The notes below the pieces were generated by a model, which had not been told where the DNA came from, made no database searches, and saw only the letters and a program-made list of their open reading frames with translations. This document shows positions 19,280 to 64,000 of a DNA stretch of 64,000 bases, in pieces. Within the stretch, counting starts at the first letter, position 1, and each line of letters starts with the position of its first letter. The translations under genes and the position numbers were made by a program. This DNA is from a virus (Duplodnaviria; Heunggongvirae; Uroviricota; Caudoviricetes), in the IMG/VR virus record IMGVR_UViG_3300026488_000246, positions 19,463 through 83,462 of that record, one strand, 5' to 3'.

Positions 19280-20011
19280 ATGTTTATCTCTTATCTCTCA
19301 CATGGTGCACCCAAGATTGACCAAGATTCAGATAAACTTATATATGCTCATGATCCAGCAATACTTGGTTACTTTGGTGTTTACTTTGAAGGAATTAGAA
19401 ACCTAGATTCAAGAATATTTGATAACACTGTAAATCAATATGCAATTGAAACTAATTCTGATATACGAAATCCAAAATTAGTTGAAGATTCTCTAATGGC
19501 TTATTGTACATCTGTTGAAATACCAGAATTAAGTTTGAAAATTATCGACAAACAAACAGTACAATATTTTTCCATAAAGATACCATCAACCATTGACTAT
19601 GGTTCTCAGAATGTGACATTCAGATTCTATGATACATCATCTGGTATAGTTTCAAGATTCATAAGAAACTGGTTCTTTGCTTTGAGGAGACCAGACAAAC
19701 ATTTTCCAAAGAAGTATGTTACTAGACAGAAGATTCAAGGAAAAATGATGCTTAAATGCAACGCCATACTATTTGCTACTGATCCATCTTTATCTGAAGT
19801 AACCTTTGCCTGTGGTTTCTTAGGTTTAATGCCTACAAACTTACCAATAGCACAGTATGCTTCTGATGTGCAAACAAGAACTTTTGCTATACTTTCACAA
19901 ACATTTTCTTTTGACAAAATAGTTGTTGATGATCACATATACAATTTTGCTTACAATAAACTCCTTCCAACATTAGCTTCTCATGATGGAGTTGTACAAT
20001 GGTCAACATAA
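19280..20011 (+). CDS. Tail tube-fold protein 1 (tube / tube initiator)
   Basis: DPAILGYF, CTSVEIP, VTFRFYDT..NW, TFSFD; follows sheath. Confidence 0.7.
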   Translation: MFISYLSHGAPKIDQDSDKLIYAHDPAILGYFGVYFEGIRNLDSRIFDNTVNQYAIETNSDIRNPKLVEDSLMAYCTSVEIPELSLKIIDKQTVQYFSIKIPSTIDYGSQNVTFRFYDTSSGIVSRFIRNWFFALRRPDKHFPKKYVTRQKIQGKMMLKCNAILFATDPSLSEVTFACGFLGLMPTNLPIAQYASDVQTRTFAILSQTFSFDKIVVDDHIYNFAYNKLLPTLASHDGVVQWST

Positions 20012-55726: not shown

Positions 55727-56287
55727 ATGATCAAAACTGCATGTCTTGTATTGGATAAACGATGGTATCCAGCAATGATTCTGAATTATAGAAAAGCATT
55801 CACACTTTCGTTAAGAGATGGTGCAGATGTATTAGCAACTCATCCAATCCATAAACTTCATACCATAAACGAAACGTTCGACATTCCCATTGTTATACGA
55901 GTTAACGAAATTATTGAACCTCAAATGATCTATGTCAATCCATCAAGATTCATGATCTTCGTAAGAGACAATTGGACATGTCAATATTGTGGAAGATCAC
56001 TTTCAGAAAAAGAATGCACTATTGATCATGTTATACCTAAATCTCAAGGTGGCCCATGGTCTTGGACTAATCTTGTAACATGTTGTCCAGAATGTAATCA
56101 AAAGAAAGGTAATCAAATTTGGCAACCAATGCAAAAGCCTTACAGACCAGAACCAATTATTATTAGCCTGAGAAGAATTGTACTTCAACGTAAAGTTGAT
56201 GATATAACATTAGACATTTGGAAACAGTTCCTTCCATTGAAGACAAGAATAATGGTTAACAGATTACAACAAATTTGCTTTATCTGA
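55727..56287 (+). CDS. HNH endonuclease (McrA-like, Zn-binding)
   Basis: RDNWTCQYCG, TIDHVIPKSQGG..WTNLVTCCPECNQKKGN. Confidence 0.92.
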   Translation: MIKTACLVLDKRWYPAMILNYRKAFTLSLRDGADVLATHPIHKLHTINETFDIPIVIRVNEIIEPQMIYVNPSRFMIFVRDNWTCQYCGRSLSEKECTIDHVIPKSQGGPWSWTNLVTCCPECNQKKGNQIWQPMQKPYRPEPIIISLRRIVLQRKVDDITLDIWKQFLPLKTRIMVNRLQQICFI

Positions 56288-56376: not shown

Positions 56377-56847
56377 ATGGAACTAATTTTCAAAAATGCA
56401 AGTATTGTAGGAGTATCCAGGAAACCATCTAAGAAACTTTCTATTTGCAAAAACGAGGTACATCCAATCTTTCATATTGAGTGTAATCCTAATGAATGCT
56501 TTATGGGAATGTTTGTGCGTCGTAGTACATCAGGGTTAATATCCAAGGAAAAAGCACAAGCTTTCTGCAGTACCGAAGGAGTATCTGTTTTGTATATGGA
56601 CTTTATCAGTGAATTTTATAGCAAGATTCTCAAATCTGACTTCTTTATGGCGTTTCTTCTCTTGGAAGAGAATGCAGAATCAGCTATAGCTAAGGTATTC
56701 AAAAATGATGGAAGATACTTTTATACAAGATTCGATACATATCAACCAATGAGAATAATGAGTTTATTTTCACTGTATGAAGAATTCTGGAGTAAGTTTC
56801 TAAGTGCTGTGCATTTTATAAGCATTAACTCGAATAAGGAGATTTAG
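56377..56847 (+). CDS. Hypothetical protein
   Basis: RBS GAGGAG before ATG 56377. Confidence 0.7.
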   Translation: MELIFKNASIVGVSRKPSKKLSICKNEVHPIFHIECNPNECFMGMFVRRSTSGLISKEKAQAFCSTEGVSVLYMDFISEFYSKILKSDFFMAFLLLEENAESAIAKVFKNDGRYFYTRFDTYQPMRIMSLFSLYEEFWSKFLSAVHFISINSNKEI

Positions 56848-57485
56848 TGATGGACAAAGGAAATTTCTTACTTGAATTAGCAAAGCATTTCTATACGGAT
56901 CTTGAAAATGTAACAACTCCGCCTAAAGAATTGCATAAGAAGGTAATTTATTGGTCATCAAAGGTCGTATTGAATCTAGAAGAGAATGCTTATGATTGGG
57001 AAACAAACCTTTATTATCTTTCCAGATATAGCTTAAGTCTTTTACTTGTCAAGTTTGCTAATGGATATAGAAACGATTTATTCAAACTTCTTGTGCAATT
57101 TTCCAAAACAAGCTTTAATGATGATGGAGTAACCTTAGCTCATAAGTTGGCCAGTCTTTATGATCATCCTGTATTTATAGCATGTTTGCCTGATCTTGTT
57201 GTAGAATTTACATCTCTTGATAAGTTTATTGATCTTTTACCCTACATAAAATCTTTGCATTATATACGAATCTTATATTGTAAAGATTCCTATCCCAAAC
57301 TATGGTTGTTGGATAATGCATATGTACCTGATACAGTCATTATTCATAAAGCTTTTGATGAGTTAGGTAAACAAGCAACATATGAAGTCATTCGTAATTA
57401 TTACTTGAAGCATCTACCTACTCAACCTAAATGTGAGGAATATAGATGTGAAAATCTACAAAGTAGATGTAACTCTAAAGAATGA
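56847..57485 (+). CDS. Hypothetical protein
   Basis: Translationally coupled ORF, RBS AAGGAG. Confidence 0.65.
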   Translation: MMDKGNFLLELAKHFYTDLENVTTPPKELHKKVIYWSSKVVLNLEENAYDWETNLYYLSRYSLSLLLVKFANGYRNDLFKLLVQFSKTSFNDDGVTLAHKLASLYDHPVFIACLPDLVVEFTSLDKFIDLLPYIKSLHYIRILYCKDSYPKLWLLDNAYVPDTVIIHKAFDELGKQATYEVIRNYYLKHLPTQPKCEEYRCENLQSRCNSKE

Positions 57486-57768
57486 AAAGATGGTAACAAG
57501 AATTTACGGTTATCAGTTCGAGAGTGATTGGTTAGATACTGTATCTTTTTTCTTATACGGAAATCTTTTGGAGATTATGGATGATGTATGTATCATTGAA
57601 ACAGAACTATGCCCATCATTCAGAGATCTAATTGAAGATCCTGCTGATTTCTTTAGACCTTTTAGACCATTTGCAAATGAAGTTAAATGGATTCTTAATG
57701 GTCAATCCTATTCAACATTTCATAGTTTTCTAGTTGACTTTTCAAGATTGTTTAAAACTCTTAAGTAA
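57448..57768 (+). CDS. Hypothetical protein
   Basis: RBS GAGG before GTG 57448. Confidence 0.6.
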   Translation: MKIYKVDVTLKNEKMVTRIYGYQFESDWLDTVSFFLYGNLLEIMDDVCIIETELCPSFRDLIEDPADFFRPFRPFANEVKWILNGQSYSTFHSFLVDFSRLFKTLK

Positions 57769-57782
57769 AACTATCATAGTAG

Positions 57783-57832
57783 TACCTAACCTAATAACCG
57801 TATACAACTTTATTACAAAATGAAACGCTTCC
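57783..57832 (+). promoter_or_regulatory. Motif A copy 7
   Basis: TACCTAACCTAATAACCGTATACAACTTTATTACAAAATGAAACGCTTCC. Confidence 0.75.
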
Positions 57833-57851
57833 ATCATTTCTACGGAGGTTG

Positions 57852-58295
57852 ATGAAAAAAATGAGAGTGGTTCTTGAAAAACTTGGTGATATCTATAAGG
57901 CAACTATTCATCTATCGTCAAACGATCCAATCGACATACGTTTCTTGGTGTATGTGTTTGAGATTCGGCAGATTCATCCATTCACCAAAGAGCATCTTCT
58001 TAAGCTTGACGAAGAAACTAGGAACGAGATTGAGAAAATTCTTGAACAATTGAGATCGGTTGGTCATATACTAGTTATTCTTCCTAAAGATGTCTTTAGG
58101 ACTATGAGTGTCCAAATTAAGTTTGACAGCTATGTTTATGTTGAATCTGCACAGAAAGCTTTACAGTTGGCTGAAGCGTTAACAGAGATAGGTTTTCTAT
58201 GTCGGTCACTAATCACTGAATGTGATGTTGACTACACATATATCAATATCGATCCATCACATGTCAAACCTCTTCGCATGATATACGCCAGTTAA
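57852..58295 (+). CDS. Hypothetical protein
   Basis: RBS GGAGG after motif A. Confidence 0.7.
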   Translation: MKKMRVVLEKLGDIYKATIHLSSNDPIDIRFLVYVFEIRQIHPFTKEHLLKLDEETRNEIEKILEQLRSVGHILVILPKDVFRTMSVQIKFDSYVYVESAQKALQLAEALTEIGFLCRSLITECDVDYTYINIDPSHVKPLRMIYAS

Positions 58296-58315
58296 ACTGA
58301 TTTAGAGAGGTCGTA

Positions 58316-58945
58316 ATGAAGATAGGTCTTTTTGGAGGTTCATTTGATCCATTTCATGAAGGACATCTTGCAACAGCTTTGAATCTTCTTCAATATTTAG
58401 ATAGAATCATTTTCATACCAACATACCAGAATCCATTAAAGCAACACAAACCCATGTTTAGTAATGAAGAAAGACTTGAGTTGATTAAGCAAGTTTGTAA
58501 GTATTTTCCAGAATTCGATTATAACGACTATGATATTGTAACCGAAAATTGTTTTACTATCAATACAGTGAGACATCTCTCAAACCTTTATCATGATGCA
58601 GACTTATATTGGATTCTAGGAGATGACGCTTTCATCAAACTTCTTAGGTGGAAAGATTGGAAATCGTTATTCGATTACGTTAAACTGATTGTAGTTGAAA
58701 GAAATCAACCACTAGCTCATACTTTAAGATATGCAGATAACATTTGTAGACAACTCAATATAGAATTTTCACTAGGATGATCTGAGAAGTTTCCTCTCAT
58801 TCTGATTTATGATATTGAAACTCCAAGTATTTCATCAACTCAAATAAGAAAGCAACTTAATAGCAAACATGATTATCTAAAACAGTTTGAATCCATTGTT
58901 AGGAGATATCATGAGCACACAAAAGAAAAAGCCTCATCCAAGTGA
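58316..58945 (+). CDS. nadD: Nicotinate-nucleotide adenylyltransferase interrupted by an in-frame TGA (58778-58780)
   Basis: IGLFGGSFDPFHEGH, P..NPLK, WILGDD..W..W, VVER; the frame after the TGA encodes the family C-terminal motif ISSTQIR. Confidence 0.85.
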
Positions 58946-59915
58946 ATTGCTATGGAGGTGGTTCTTTGAATCTAATGATCCTGAACCACCTCCTGAACTT
59001 GTTGATAATCCACAACTTACACATGTAACAATCATTTCATGTTTCCCTATGAATCAACAACTTAATGCTCATCTTGTAAACAGGTTATCAGGATTTAATC
59101 TGTATAGTATATCTAAACGGGATTTACTTAAACGATTAAAAGAACTGATAAGACGGTTTAAGGTAAGTCCTTATGATTACTGGACACTAGCCCAAAAGAA
59201 ACCTCATCAAGATCCATTAGCCAAATGCTTATGGAGACACTATGAAATTAAACCACAAGATTTATCTTATGTGATTGAAGTATCTGGTGGAAGACAGGTT
59301 GTTGAATCGTTATGTGGTAAGGCTGTAAAGCTTAAGAAAAACCAAGATGAGAATGATGTATTTTCTCATCTTGCTAACTTGATTCAACAGCAAAGTAAAT
59401 CCAATGCTTCTAATTCAGGATTACAACAAACCTTAGAAGATTACAAACAATGGATTATAGATTTACTTTCCACTAAAACAACAGTATGCAATTATGAAGG
59501 ATGTAGAGATTGTCCTTTAAGAAATCAACCATTCGTACCCCCAGATTTCATAATCAATGATCCATCAAGGAATGAAGTTGATATCATGATAGTAGGTATG
59601 AATCCTTATGTAGATGAAGTTAAGCAAGGTAAACCATTTGTTGGGAGATCTGGAAAGAAACTTAGGGAAGTCCTTTCTAAGATCTTTGATAAGCATAATA
59701 TTGTAATCACAAATACTTGTATGTGCTTTGTGCCAGATAACAAAGATCCTGATAAACAATCGCAAGCTTGCTGTAAACCTTTACTACTTGAGCAGATCAA
59801 AAGAATTAAACCAAAGATTGTTGTACCTTTAGGAGGTTTAGCAGCTTCAAACTTACTGAATCAACCAGTATCTATAACCAAAATTGCTGGGCAAAAGTTT
59901 GAAATTGAAACCTAG
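58911..59915 (+). CDS. Unknown N-terminal domain fused to the N-terminal ~80% of a family-4-like [4Fe-4S] uracil-DNA glycosylase
   Basis: CRDCPL, IVGMNPY, PFVGRSGKKL, ITNTCMC, ACCKP, EQIKRIKPKIVVPLG, SITKIAG; motif B (HPxx) absent. Confidence 0.85.
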   Translation: MSTQKKKPHPSELLWRWFFESNDPEPPPELVDNPQLTHVTIISCFPMNQQLNAHLVNRLSGFNLYSISKRDLLKRLKELIRRFKVSPYDYWTLAQKKPHQDPLAKCLWRHYEIKPQDLSYVIEVSGGRQVVESLCGKAVKLKKNQDENDVFSHLANLIQQQSKSNASNSGLQQTLEDYKQWIIDLLSTKTTVCNYEGCRDCPLRNQPFVPPDFIINDPSRNEVDIMIVGMNPYVDEVKQGKPFVGRSGKKLREVLSKIFDKHNIVITNTCMCFVPDNKDPDKQSQACCKPLLLEQIKRIKPKIVVPLGGLAASNLLNQPVSITKIAGQKFEIET

Positions 59916-59925
59916 GAGGTGAAGA

Positions 59926-60273
59926 ATGAATAGAAAGGAGCTAGTTAAAACTCTATTCTATCATACATCTGACTTTGTTAGAAACAAAGATCCTAAACTT
60001 GCAAAGGAAATAGTGCTAATTCTTACTGAGCTTAACGCTATGAAAGATGTCAAAACATTCATCGAACTAGCTAGAGAAGTGAATTTTGATTTAACAGATG
60101 ATATAGAATATGATACAATTGAGACACTAGGTTCTATCATTGATACGATAAGCATGTTTGATGATGAAGATGATGGAGACATATATTACCTTTATGCAAT
60201 GTCTTGTAAGTTAATGCATTACATAGAAGTTTTACTTGGAAAGAAGTTAGAAGAGATTGTCTTGCAATCCTAA
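59926..60273 (+). CDS. Acidic hypothetical protein inserted between the two UDG halves
   Basis: RBS GGAGGTG overlapping the upstream stop; 24 D/E versus 13 K/R in 115 aa. Confidence 0.7.
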   Translation: MNRKELVKTLFYHTSDFVRNKDPKLAKEIVLILTELNAMKDVKTFIELAREVNFDLTDDIEYDTIETLGSIIDTISMFDDEDDGDIYYLYAMSCKLMHYIEVLLGKKLEEIVLQS

Positions 60274-60296
60274 TCTGAAATTGTTAAGGGGGTCTA

Positions 60297-62621
60297 ATGA
60301 AAGTAACTGTTATTCCCAACCTACATCCATCAGCGGTAATTAGGAACACCAAACAATGGGAACCTTTATTTATTCATGCTTTTGAAAGAATTAAAGAGAA
60401 ACTAGCTATACATAATACTGCTGATTCTAAACCTGCGAAAAATGATACATTACCGAACCATACAAACAATATTATTCATTTGAATGATACGAATTTTGAA
60501 TCTATACTTAAGCAGTTAAAGGATGAAGGTTACGCGCTTATAGATGTGCAAAGATACAAGGATCTTTATGGTGATCAAGTTGTAGATCAAGGTATCTTTG
60601 CTGTTGTATCTAATGGAAAACAGAGAAAGTATTTGATGCTTAACAATGTTAGGCTTAAATACTATACATTGAGAAGAGGACAATCACCAGAACCTTTAAT
60701 GCCTTTCAATACTTTAAATCAAGAAATAGGTTCAACTTGTAAAGATATCGTTAAAGATAGATACAAAGCTATGCCAATGTATAAAGATCAAGTATACTAT
60801 AACTATGATTTTCCAATAGATGATTGGCTTGTATTACAAATAAGAGAAATCCTTGATAAGGACCCAACATACAACATTGCATTCTTTGACATAGAGGTTC
60901 ATGCAGAAGATGGTACATTCCCAGATGAAAGGCAGGCTAAATATCCTGTATCAACTATCTCTTTTGTTATAGGAAACGAATTCTATCAGCTTATAAACAA
61001 GAAACTTTTTCCGAATCTAAACGAGGAAAGAATTAAGGACCTAATCAAACAGAATGGAGTAACCATTGATAACCTGAATATCATTTACTATGATGATGAA
61101 GTTTCTATGCTAAAAGGATTTGCAAAACTTCTGAAGGATAAACAAGTAGATGTACTTACAGCTTGGAACATCTACTTCGATATTAACTATTTGGCTAATA
61201 GATGCAAAGTTATTGGTGTGGATACAGATATCTTCTCACCAATTGGAAAACCTATGTATCCTTCTGGTAAACTTGGTTTCCATATGATTCCTGGAATTAT
61301 CATAGCTGACTTACTTGAACTATACAAATCTTATGAGGGTAGAGAAACAAGATATAATCTAGATTACATTGTGGAGAAGAATCTTGGATTAAACAAAGTT
61401 AAATATGAAGGAACACTTGCAGAATTACTTCATAAAGATCCAGATTTGTACATAGCTTACTCTGCTGTTGATACCAAACTTATCCAAATGCTTGAAGATA
61501 AGAAAGGTGATCTTACACTACATTTACAACTAAAGGATCTGGCAAGAATCTCTTATCTAAACAGTTATTCAACACTAACCCAAATAGATGGACTTATGTA
61601 TCAGTATGCTAAAAAGAGAGGAATGGCTTTAAGGCAACGTCCTCTTAAAGCTGACAAATCTGGATCTTTCGTTGGTGCTTTTGTAAGGGAGCCAAGGAAA
61701 GGATACATTCCGTATGTAATTGACTTGGATGCATCATCCATGTATCCCTCAATTATGATTTCATTAAACATATCGCCAGAAACTTTTGTGGGATACATTG
61801 AAGAAGGTTCTAACCCAACATTTATGGAAAAGTTTCTGCTTACAAATGAAGTAGATGATGAAACTGTTACTGTGATAGTTAATCCTAATAAGAAAGGTTT
61901 TCTAGAAGAGCAAAGAATACAGATTAAAGTAAGAGATCTCAAGAATAAGGTCTATAGCAATAAACTTACAATTTCTCCTGCAGGGACGATATTTGATAGA
62001 TCTAAGAAAGGTTTCATTGAAGAGATTCTTGAAGACCTAATTACAAGAAGAAAAAGATTCAAGAAAGAGGCTTTGAAACTCCTTGAATCCTCCAATCCAG
62101 AAGATAAAGCCTTAGGTGCTAAATACAATGTAATACAGAAAGCTTTGAAAGTATTAGCTAACGCTATTTATGGTGCTATGGGTAACCAAGCATACAGATT
62201 CTTTGATACAAGAATTTCTGTAACAATTACTCTTACAGGACAATGGGAGATTAAGTTTGTATCTGGACTAACAGAGAAGTTCATACAACACATCATAGGA
62301 ACCGAAGAGATTTATCTTGAACCAGAATTAGATAGAGAGATTCTGAGAGAGGCAGAAGGTGAGCAACATTATGTATTCTATTCCGATACAGACTCATCAT
62401 TCATTGATATCTTTGAATTGTTAGTTAACGAGATTCCAAAAGTTATGCAAGAGCTTTCAGGACTTAGTCAGGTTACATTGGGTAACGAAGTAATCAAACT
62501 ACCTAATGATTTTGATGAAAAGTTAAAGATGTTAGTTGATGTGAAATACAAAGCATTAAAAGAAAAGCTTGAAACTGATTCCCCTATACATCCAATAGTA
62601 GCTAAAATGTTTGGAGAATGA
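60297..62621 (+). CDS. polB: Family B DNA polymerase, N-terminal part (UDG C-terminal motif + 3'-5' exonuclease + fingers + palm through motif C)
   Basis: Starts MKVTVIPNLHPSAVIRN; ExoI FFDIEV, ExoII AWNIYFD, ExoIII YSAVD; DLDASSMYPS, KVLANAIYG, YSDTDS; no KKRY motif or thumb. Confidence 0.92.
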   Translation: MKVTVIPNLHPSAVIRNTKQWEPLFIHAFERIKEKLAIHNTADSKPAKNDTLPNHTNNIIHLNDTNFESILKQLKDEGYALIDVQRYKDLYGDQVVDQGIFAVVSNGKQRKYLMLNNVRLKYYTLRRGQSPEPLMPFNTLNQEIGSTCKDIVKDRYKAMPMYKDQVYYNYDFPIDDWLVLQIREILDKDPTYNIAFFDIEVHAEDGTFPDERQAKYPVSTISFVIGNEFYQLINKKLFPNLNEERIKDLIKQNGVTIDNLNIIYYDDEVSMLKGFAKLLKDKQVDVLTAWNIYFDINYLANRCKVIGVDTDIFSPIGKPMYPSGKLGFHMIPGIIIADLLELYKSYEGRETRYNLDYIVEKNLGLNKVKYEGTLAELLHKDPDLYIAYSAVDTKLIQMLEDKKGDLTLHLQLKDLARISYLNSYSTLTQIDGLMYQYAKKRGMALRQRPLKADKSGSFVGAFVREPRKGYIPYVIDLDASSMYPSIMISLNISPETFVGYIEEGSNPTFMEKFLLTNEVDDETVTVIVNPNKKGFLEEQRIQIKVRDLKNKVYSNKLTISPAGTIFDRSKKGFIEEILEDLITRRKRFKKEALKLLESSNPEDKALGAKYNVIQKALKVLANAIYGAMGNQAYRFFDTRISVTITLTGQWEIKFVSGLTEKFIQHIIGTEEIYLEPELDREILREAEGEQHYVFYSDTDSSFIDIFELLVNEIPKVMQELSGLSQVTLGNEVIKLPNDFDEKLKMLVDVKYKALKEKLETDSPIHPIVAKMFGE

Positions 62622-62626
62622 ACTAA

Positions 62627-62658
62627 AGGGATGGTAACCATTCTTGGTTACCATCCCT
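62627..62658 (+). terminator. Hairpin directly after polB stop
   Basis: AGGGATGGTAACCA-TTCT-TGGTTACCATCCCT perfect 14-bp stem. Confidence 0.7.
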
Positions 62659-62671
62659 AAACTGCTTTTAT

Positions 62672-62957
62672 GGAGATGGAACGTCTAAGTTTCGATATTG
62701 TAGATTGTAGCGAAATCTCACTTTAGAGTGTTTCATATTCATTTATATTCAACTGAGGGGTCTAGGTTGTTTTTTCAACCTGAATCTGAAAAACAAACAA
62801 GAACCTAGGTAATCTCTAAGTTTTCAAAGATTACCTAGGCCTGGGAGAGTTAATCTCTCCCAATAATCTCCTACAATCGGCTTAATGCAGACTGTAGGAG
62901 CAGATTTCCATCTTTTCAATGAATTGAATGTTGTTTGCATAGCCTTTTGGCTATGTA
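62672..62957 (+). ncRNA. Candidate structured non-coding RNA of unknown class
   Basis: Long-range stem 62674-62686/62902-62913 enclosing at least five hairpins, plus two more hairpins 3' of it; no credible ORF. Confidence 0.6.
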
Positions 62958-63044
62958 TGATTAGAAATCTTTTTAAGAGTCCCTTCATTTAACATTTATT
63001 TCAAATGTAAGTTCTATAACGTAAATTACAACCGTTTTAAGGAG

Positions 63045-63470
63045 GTGGATATGGAAGTAGTAATCAAATCTGTCAATGCAGATCCTATCAAAAATATACT
63101 AGCTTGGTTCAAAAGACGAATCGAGGAAGACTTTTATTCACACTTCAATCTTGTAGAGCAGTTGCATAGAACCATTCATGTTGCACCACATCCTGGAAAT
63201 ACACCTGATGTCTATGATGACTTTGCCGACGCTCTCGATTATGCTGACATCTTTTTCGAAAAAGAGTTTGCAAACTTTCTAGGATTAGCAATAAAGTATG
63301 GTGTAATTGATCGTGAAACTAACTTTGTGATACGATCTATATATGTAACGGATCATGATGTAAAACTAGTTGCGTTTATGAATTTGATAGCTAGAAAGGT
63401 TAACAATGGTAATGTAACGTTTACACTGAAGAGATTTGATGAGTTAGATCATGAAGAAACAATGTTGTAG
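63045..63470 (+). CDS. Hypothetical protein
   Basis: RBS AAGGAGGTG, 141 aa. Confidence 0.7.
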   Translation: MDMEVVIKSVNADPIKNILAWFKRRIEEDFYSHFNLVEQLHRTIHVAPHPGNTPDVYDDFADALDYADIFFEKEFANFLGLAIKYGVIDRETNFVIRSIYVTDHDVKLVAFMNLIARKVNNGNVTFTLKRFDELDHEETML

Positions 63471-63474
63471 TTTT

Positions 63475-63496
63475 GGAGAGGTCTTTGAACCTCTCC
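63475..63496 (+). terminator. Intergenic hairpin
   Basis: GGAGAGGT-CTTTGA-ACCTCTCC. Confidence 0.5.
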
Positions 63497-63521
63497 TCCA
63501 ATAACTGAAGGAGGTGGTGGT

Positions 63522-64000
63522 ATGATAAACCAAATGCTAAACGATTACAAATTCATCAAAGGTATAGCAGAACCACTTAACAACACCTTTCATGCTTACA
63601 AGAATGACCCTTCTAATGGTCTTTCTCCATACCATTTAGAAGGTTCTGTTTGGATGCATACTTTGATGACATTAACACATGCAGAAACAGAATTTGCTAA
63701 AATAGCGTTATTATTCCATGATAGTGGGAAGATGATGGTTTATGAGGATCTTGATAAGAAACGGTTTAGAAGGTTTAGCGGGCATGAAATTGCTTCTGGT
63801 AATATCTGGTTAGATTATGCATTACAAACGGATTTTATTAAGGATCAGCTTAGTAAGGAGGACATTTTCAATATTTACAAGCTTATTCAGACGCACCATA
63901 TGTACAAGTTAAACAAAGATAACCGGTTGTGGACTAAACTAGACATCCTAGATGTCTTATCTATCTGGAAAGATATACATTATGCTGATGTAAACGATAG
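63522..64000 (+). CDS. HD-domain phosphohydrolase (partial, runs off the window; absent from the ORF track)
   Basis: RBS GGAGGTGG; SPYHLEGSVWMHT, ALLFHDSGK, FSGHE, HH, YAD; open to 64000. Confidence 0.85.
   Translation, partial: MINQMLNDYKFIKGIAEPLNNTFHAYKNDPSNGLSPYHLEGSVWMHTLMTLTHAETEFAKIALLFHDSGKMMVYEDLDKKRFRRFSGHEIASGNIWLDYALQTDFIKDQLSKEDIFNIYKLIQTHHMYKLNKDNRLWTKLDILDVLSIWKDIHYADVND

Follow-up and report, generated by a model that had tools for sequence, protein, structure and literature searches.

The subject of this report is a uracil-DNA glycosylase (UDG) that is divided between two genes of an uncultured giant phage, in a stretch of 64,000 nucleotides (hereafter, the window) that spans positions 19,463 to 83,462 of IMG/VR virus record IMGVR_UViG_3300026488_000246. 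One gene, which we call UDG-N, encodes a family-4-type iron-sulfur UDG that stops before the last beta-hairpin of the fold is closed; the missing end of the fold, with its catalytic motif B, forms the N-terminus of a T4-like family B DNA polymerase (PolB) encoded just downstream. We consider it likely that the pair constitutes a naturally split, two-chain UDG module of the phage replicase. The record, which originates from hydrothermal-vent metagenomes, is 147 kb long with 33% G+C and is ~54% complete.

The two pieces are complementary parts of a single profile. A hidden Markov model of 198 positions, built from 48 stand-alone family-4-like UDGs, was searched against the 387 open reading frames (ORFs) of the genome; UDG-N matched positions 14-152, up to its own last residues (E 1e-46), and the second-best match in the genome was to PolB residues 3-40, which covered positions 154-190 (8 bits, E 0.019; next ORF, E 1.4). 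A first-pass annotation made from the sequence had proposed just such a split UDG, with the catalytic HPS motif at the PolB N-terminus, and the adjoining profile intervals bear it out. UDG-N ends in ..ITKIAGQKFEIET before a TAG stop, and the PolB ORF opens with MKVTVIPNLHPSAVIRN. The proposal that these ends meet with nothing lost was upheld by comparison with P0015, a relative in which the UDG and the polymerase form one chain: UDG-N 14-328 aligned to P0015 9-327 (34% identity, E 4e-50) and PolB 10-713 to P0015 345-1041 (39% identity, E 7e-151), leaving 17 P0015 residues between the two alignments, compared with 15 (6 + 9) at the termini in the window. The N-terminal piece of PolB aligns within the UDG domain of P0015. 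In the multiple alignment, the break falls in a length-variable loop between the last two beta-strands, with no residues lost.

Most of the recognizable UDG lies on the first chain. Pfam UDG matched UDG-N residues 222-318 over profile positions 7-101 of 141 (E 6e-22), and the Thermus thermophilus family-4 UDG (1ui0) aligned over its residues 32-144 of 205 (phmmer E 5e-19). The AlphaFold2 (AF2) model of UDG-N alone had a mean pLDDT of 78.6, with values of ~90 or more over most of the UDG core, and its best Foldseek matches were the family-4 UDGs 1ui0, 1l9g, and 1vk2 (E ~1e-8), at target-normalized TM scores of 0.62-0.66, as expected because the copy is incomplete. Residues 320-334 were of low confidence in this monomer and formed no final strand. 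At the putative 4Fe-4S ligand positions, C198, C201, C272, and C288 do not vary and line up with the Cys residues of stand-alone family-4 UDGs; also on UDG-N, and also invariant, are the Phe of PFVG (F243) and the Asn of ITN (N268). In solved family-4 UDGs and UdgX, all of these positions, together with motif A, line the base pocket. The UDG core of UDG-N is 47% invariant, which makes it as conserved as the exonuclease and palm of the polymerase, and retains all of its motif residues.

The remainder of the fold is carried by the polymerase chain. Matches to the Pfam exonuclease (exo1) and DNA_pol_B domains identify the ORF as a family B polymerase, in which the UDG-C piece is followed by a linker, the PolB N-terminal domain, the 3'-5' exonuclease, and the palm and fingers to beyond motif C (YSDTDS). 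Its nearest phage relatives by tblastn are T4-like gp43 proteins of the Kyanoviridae and others (25-31% identity), and because these matches begin at query residue 90-190, the first ~60 residues of PolB are extra. Motif B in this extra segment fits the pattern HPS(S/A)(L/V)(L/V)R except for an Ile at the sixth position; that pattern is given for UdgX, unchanged from family 4, with HPAAVL in UdgA, and in UdgX the His and Asn hydrogen-bond uracil and the motif B Arg touches the DNA backbone (PMC10359453). PolB residues 5-14 are invariant among relatives, which are ~50% identical over the first 170 residues of PolB. Across four diverse relatives, 79% of residues 3-16 are invariant, versus 47-48% of the exonuclease and palm and none of the 26 linker columns; judged by these alignments, the strand and motif B are the best conserved part of the polymerase chain.

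A co-fold of the two chains, one of the checks that the first-pass annotation had suggested, was run with UDG-N residues 185-334 and PolB residues 1-60 and gave an ipSAE of 0.92; the best of three controls gave 0.00. Of 80 solved complexes, 58 reach the same mark, as do 2 of 110 mismatched pairs; these reference counts hold only roughly here, since our own alignments were supplied. At least 98% of contacts were shared among three runs, with a partner pLDDT of at least 71; PolB residues 4-8 were placed between UDG-N 303-307 and 326-330, and the PolB helix lay on UDG-N 251-258. Because two halves of a known fold may score well by resembling solved UDG monomers, the co-fold shows compatibility, not binding. 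As modeled, the alpha/beta/alpha fold of the UDG is complete only with PolB residues 1-36, and the fragment complementation suggested at the outset is favored by prediction and by conservation of both halves.

Another suggested check was a survey for unsplit versions. A scan of 1.8 billion representatives was followed through its best 150 clusters, each at 50% identity, and single-chain UDG-PolB proteins accounted for 13 of these. A helical N-terminal domain, a complete UDG, and PolB occur in one chain in P0015, P0016, P0017, P0018, P0019, P0068, P0071, and others; in P0015, the exonuclease and polymerase domains of PolB come after a Pfam UDG match that spans positions 5-133 of 141. Fusions of this UDG-PolB kind appear to form a family of considerable size in metagenomes. 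Split-type contig L003 and the contig of unsplit P0015 (L009) came from the same ENA sample. In a PolB tree rooted on UDG-less Kyanoviridae PolBs, the split forms grouped in one clade (support, 100/100), which had fused P0015 as its sister (81/85) and lay within the fused forms, so that a single fission of an older fusion is the parsimonious history. An ancestral UDG-PolB fusion cut inside the UDG fold had been postulated, and the unsplit relatives, the colinearity of P0015, and the nested, monophyletic split clade support it. The break point is common, within a few residues, to four relatives at 52-59% identity, a further relative being 98% identical, and all five related PolBs have the N-terminus ..VIPNLHPSAV(I/L)R. 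Among the unsplit forms, P0068 (1411 amino acids [aa], metagenomic) has an intein (Pfam Intein_splicing) within its polymerase part. A shorter protein, P0023 (468 aa), comprises the N-terminal domain and a complete UDG with GINPG as its motif A, and its polymerase part reaches no further than the beginning of the PolB N-terminal region; it may have its cut at another site or may be a contig-end fragment.

The DNA between the halves differs from one member of the split clade to the next in both length and gene content (Table 1). The 115-aa gene in the window was correctly described as having its own ribosome-binding site, an AGGAGG overlapping the UDG-N stop, and every PolB of the loci compared (window, L001, L010/L011, and L012) has its own Shine-Dalgarno sequence (SD) and ATG. 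The two halves share a reading frame in the window and are in different frames in one of the three relatives examined (L001). There is, then, a contiguous homologue, and each piece has separate translation signals, which is how a split phage gene is recognized. Spacers of 10 nt (UDG-N to the 115-aa gene) and 23 nt (115-aa gene to PolB), together with the lack of a plus-strand terminator in a scan of 57600-62621, fit one three-cistron operon; a promoter scan found sigma-70-like sites at the locus at chance level only. An assembly artifact is excluded, because contigs of four further runs, drawn from three studies, continue without indels from the UDG-N stop through the 115-aa gene into the PolB start. 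No RNA run was among those listed as containing the locus. Position 59915 is G>A in two other runs, turning TAG into TAA, and the UDG-N stop is thereby kept across strains; contig joints seen in contigs of other runs represent related phages with other gap contents.

Table 1. Features of the split UDG-PolB locus and of the gaps between UDG halves (nucleotide positions refer to the window unless another contig is named)
Feature	Position or length	Strand	Remarks
HNH endonuclease gene	55727-56287		186 aa
212-aa gene of ~200-aa family	56847-57485	+	Upstream of UDG-N here; between the UDG halves in three relatives
Cytidylyltransferase-like (NadD-like) ORF	58316-58780		154 aa; just 5' of UDG-N
UDG-N gene	58911-59915	+	334 aa; SD AGGAG at 58901-58905
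Helical N-terminal domain	UDG-N residues ~1-135 (region 58911-59465 = residues 1-185)	+	Followed by low-confidence linker
UDG core up to first strand of last hairpin	UDG-N residues 191-334	+	~Three quarters of a family-4-type Fe-S UDG
Motif A, GMNPY	UDG-N residues 229-233 = 59595-59609	+	Replaces family-4 GE(A/G)PG
115-aa gap gene	59926-60273	+	SD AGGAGG at 59914-59919, overlapping UDG-N stop codon
PolB-N gene	60297-62621	+	774 aa; AAGGGGG at 60286-60292
UDG-C piece	PolB residues 1-36 = 60297-60404	+	Strand 3-8, motif B, closing helix ~21-36
Motif B, HPSAVIR	PolB residues 10-16 = 60324-60344	+	His10, Arg16
Variable linker	PolB residues 37-62 = 60405-60482	+	Tethers UDG-C to polymerase body
PolB thumb	G000:C1:94190-95140 (= L007:1336-2286)		Outside window, ~10.7 kb past its end; 316 aa, KKKAY
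Gap, window	381 nt		115-aa gene
Gap, L001	925 nt		205-aa + 111-aa genes
Gap, L010/L011	789 nt		58-aa + 200-aa genes
Gap, L012	606 nt		188-aa gene

These observations can be accommodated by a model in which the ancestor was one chain made of the helical N-terminal domain, the Fe-S UDG, and a T4-like PolB. A single cut in the UDG fold would have opened the loop of its last beta-hairpin, and small genes would later have accumulated in the gap. Chain 1 would then supply the four Cys residues, motif A, F243, and N268, and chain 2 the inner beta-strand, motif B, and the closing helix; within motif B, the His would stabilize the leaving uracil and the Arg would contact DNA. A flexible linker of ~25 residues would connect the UDG-C piece with the body of the polymerase. 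Made from adjacent cistrons by separate translation, the two chains are predicted to reassemble by strand insertion, so that fold and active site would be complete only on the polymerase. We infer that the chains physically reassemble, as the co-fold predicts, and that the module is catalytic, glycosylase activity presumably arising only on the polymerase. By analogy with the UDG-PolA fusions and poxvirus E4/D4, the module probably scans the template for uracil, or for a related base, before the DNA is copied.

Motif A bears on what the substrate might be. The departure from GEAP, which had been noted at the outset, is genuine; its description there as MUG-like was less apt, because the closest counterpart is the GMNPG of SMUG1. 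The GMNPY of UDG-N combines the Met-Asn of SMUG1 GMNPG with the Tyr of UNG GQDPY, and an Asn at this position is found in two active families, MUG (GINPG) and SMUG1 (GMNPG) (PMC10359453). GMNPY is invariant in the split clade and also occurs in unsplit P0015, P0016, P0019, P0024, P0025, P0028, and P0079, members of a larger PolB-linked clade of which it is a mark and in which an altered segment after the Asn accompanies it. PolB-linked UDGs nearer the outgroup keep GEAPG or AEAPG (P0017, P0018, P0049, and P0071), and GEAP is also found in P0068, a protein that the tree did not include. Since most unsplit UDG-PolB fusions have GMNPY, the change is unrelated to the split; judging from the motif, the substrate may differ from plain uracil, a question that concerns the whole GMNPY clade and not the split.

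Several considerations weigh against the interpretation of the pair as a split UDG. Compared by itself with stand-alone UDGs, the PolB N-terminus scores weakly, and the case relies on the colinear alignment with the fused relatives; excision of uracil is uncertain, given that motif A differs from the family-4 consensus; and although UDG-N was the only UDG found, the record is incomplete, so an intact second UDG or another complementing peptide may lie elsewhere in the genome. The departure in motif A also raises the alternative that the two chains reassemble and excise no base, acting instead as a structural or processivity element or as a sensor of uracil or modified bases on the polymerase. 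There are precedents for such a role: the N4-like UDG-PolA fusions have lost their catalytic residues, and a processivity function has been proposed for them (PMC10201439), and vaccinia UDG doubles as a processivity factor (PMC10253040). However, F243, N268, His10, Arg16, and all four Cys residues are conserved in the phage module, the Asn in motif A is the state found in active MUG and SMUG1 (PMC10359453), and the inactive N4-like domains are without the motif B hairpin (PMC10201439), which here belongs to the best conserved part of the chain. We therefore regard a non-excising module as unlikely.

A harsher alternative is that the split destroyed the UDG, leaving the 36 residues on PolB as a vestige and UDG-N in service of some other role, for example, through its N-terminal domain, which is common to the unsplit forms and could function itself. 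That no stretch of the polymerase chain is better conserved than the supposed remnant, in relatives only ~50% identical over the first 170 residues of that chain, and that the UDG core has kept its motif residues and is as conserved as the exonuclease and palm, make this very improbable. Even less probable, in our estimation, is the restoration of a continuous protein by RNA splicing, protein splicing, translational bypass, or read-through. The common frame of the window ORFs and the intein of P0068 could be taken to favor it; however, more than 20 stop codons interrupt the UDG-N frame in the gap, which also contains a conserved gene with its own ribosome-binding site, gap length and gene content differ in all three relatives, and the halves of L001 are in different frames. 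No intron family was detected in a permissive Rfam search of 58000-63600, which returned a chance-level snoRNA match only. A split intein or fractured gene of the type described previously (PMC2677866) was considered and rejected: neither ORF has a Pfam intein, and 15 junction residues against 17 in the contiguous homologue leave no room for split-intein halves. The absence of intein and intron hallmarks reported initially is thus confirmed, and intein, bypass, and read-through are rejected in view of the gap stops, the variable gaps, the separate SDs, and the junction length.

A split UDG module thus remains our preferred reading, and its cut might be more than an accident. Since the polymerase supplies the His and Arg and a free subunit the other parts of the pocket, the cut could act as a licensing device that makes excision impossible outside the assembled replisome, an extension that we think decidedly doubtful. 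If it were true, the phage's own DNA, perhaps modified or uracil rich, would be spared untargeted cleavage, the enzyme could be hidden from Ugi-like inhibitors, and the acidic gap protein (pI 4.5) might regulate or chaperone assembly. No thymidylate synthase, ThyX, or dUTPase family was found in the record, but at ~54% completeness these missing nucleotide-metabolism families say nothing about base modification. In one split-clade relative, a Glyco_trans_1_4 glycosyltransferase gene lies directly 3' of PolB (L010:8313-9152) and could hint at glycosylation of DNA or of something else.

The gap genes themselves matched no Pfam or PHROG family. The 115-aa product has no Pfam or PHROG family, and a word-indexed homologue search returned only itself; the 111-aa ORF that L001 has in this position (42% identity) is the sole relative found. 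The ~200-aa family that occupies the gap in three relatives, also without a Pfam match, is represented in the window by the 212-aa gene upstream of UDG-N, which matched the 200-aa ORF of L010 (BLASTP E 3e-12), the 188-aa ORF of L012 (E 2e-4), and the 205-aa ORF of L001 (E 3e-7 pairwise, 2e-3 all-against-all). Pfam and PHROG searches of the gap ORFs revealed no homing endonuclease or nuclease domain. Outside the gap, an HNH gene abuts and overlaps the UDG-N start in L001 and L010; in the window it is 2.6 kb upstream, separated from UDG-N by five genes that include the ~200-aa family member. The NadD-like ORF listed in Table 1 is the immediate neighbor of UDG-N on the 5' side.

Both ends of the replicase have further peculiarities. 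Folded alone, the N-terminal domain of UDG-N reached a pLDDT of 72.9, and its best structural match was 3u5z_A (186 residues) of the T4 clamp-loader complex, which from the structure entry we take to be gp62; the similarity (Z 5.3, root-mean-square deviation 3.5 A, 78 residues aligned) is too weak, for a helical domain, to name the fold. The second match, the RFC subunit chain 7sgz_C (Z 4.8), is likewise too weak, and no match with E < 0.9 was found among AFDB clusters; contact with a clamp or clamp loader, suggested by these model comparisons, is a lead only. At the other end, the PolB ORF stops ~75 residues past YSDTDS and lacks the thumb, which is encoded separately beyond the window, so the replicase consists of at least three chains (UDG-N, PolB-N, and thumb). 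Several unsplit UDG-PolB proteins also end just past motif C, with the thumb in a separate gene; because fused P0015 ends at the same point, the thumb cut is older than the UDG cut.

This arrangement is a natural split in a small domain, with an active site apparently shared by a free subunit and a replicative polymerase and with single-chain relatives as built-in controls, and it offers a system for the study of fragment complementation and of base surveillance coupled to replication. It also has a practical consequence for annotation, since pipelines will label UDG-N a truncated UDG and overlook the motif on the polymerase. A limited literature search yielded papers on UDG-PolA fusions only and none on a UDG fused to a phage family B polymerase or on a UDG fold encoded by two genes; UDG-PolA fusions, split gp43, and split NrdA are already known, and the two-gene UDG and the UDG-PolB fusions were found undescribed in the literature searched.

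Fusions of UDGs to phage polymerases, which the first-pass annotation had cited as known, have indeed been published, but they concern family A and not family B polymerases: they occur in SPO1-like, SP15-like (phiLo, PDB 9qhs, and YerA41), and N4-like phages (PMC10201439, PMC13697223). The 9qhs entry matches UDG-N in sequence (E 4e-10) and in fold. In the solved enzymes of phiLo and YerA41, the 5' template strand is held by the active UDG domain in front of the polymerase site (PMC13697223), and a PolA split between its exonuclease and polymerase domains has also been reported (PMC10201439). As in the window, a family-4-type UDG is coupled in these phages to the N-terminus of a replicative polymerase; the PolA proteins, however, carry the whole UDG in the same chain, whereas the T4-like polymerase of the window carries only the last 36 UDG residues, and its UDG has GMNPY. 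Also close are the unsplit proteins described above, with the same order of helical N-terminal domain, UDG, linker, and PolB and, mostly, the same GMNPY; in them the UDG is continuous, whereas in the window clade it is cut in the loop of the last hairpin.

Genes in pieces are known among the T4-like phages, in which nrdA of Aeh1 is split by mobE (PMC3045599) and gene 43 is divided into 43A and 43B in Aeromonas phages 25 and 44RR (PMC2988022). There, too, separately translated cistrons yield products that must reassemble, with an active site built from fragments, and in the gene 43 splits it is the polymerase that is cut, as it is before the thumb in the window. Unlike the mobE insertion in Aeh1, the gap in the window has no detectable homing endonuclease, and no added interaction tails are visible, reassembly being predicted to proceed by completion of a beta-sheet. 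The poxvirus replicase, in which the UDG (vaccinia D4, mpox E4) is bound in trans to a family B polymerase, provides a parallel in function (as summarized in PMC13697223). In that summary, the poxvirus UDG is a stable part of the replicase and lies on the template ahead of the active site, the mpox E4 UDG taking the position that the UDG domain has in phiLo and YerA41, and a UDG would likewise be coupled to a family B viral replicase in the window; the poxvirus UDG, however, is a complete family-1 enzyme attached via a bridging subunit, whereas in the phage the fold itself would be shared by two chains.

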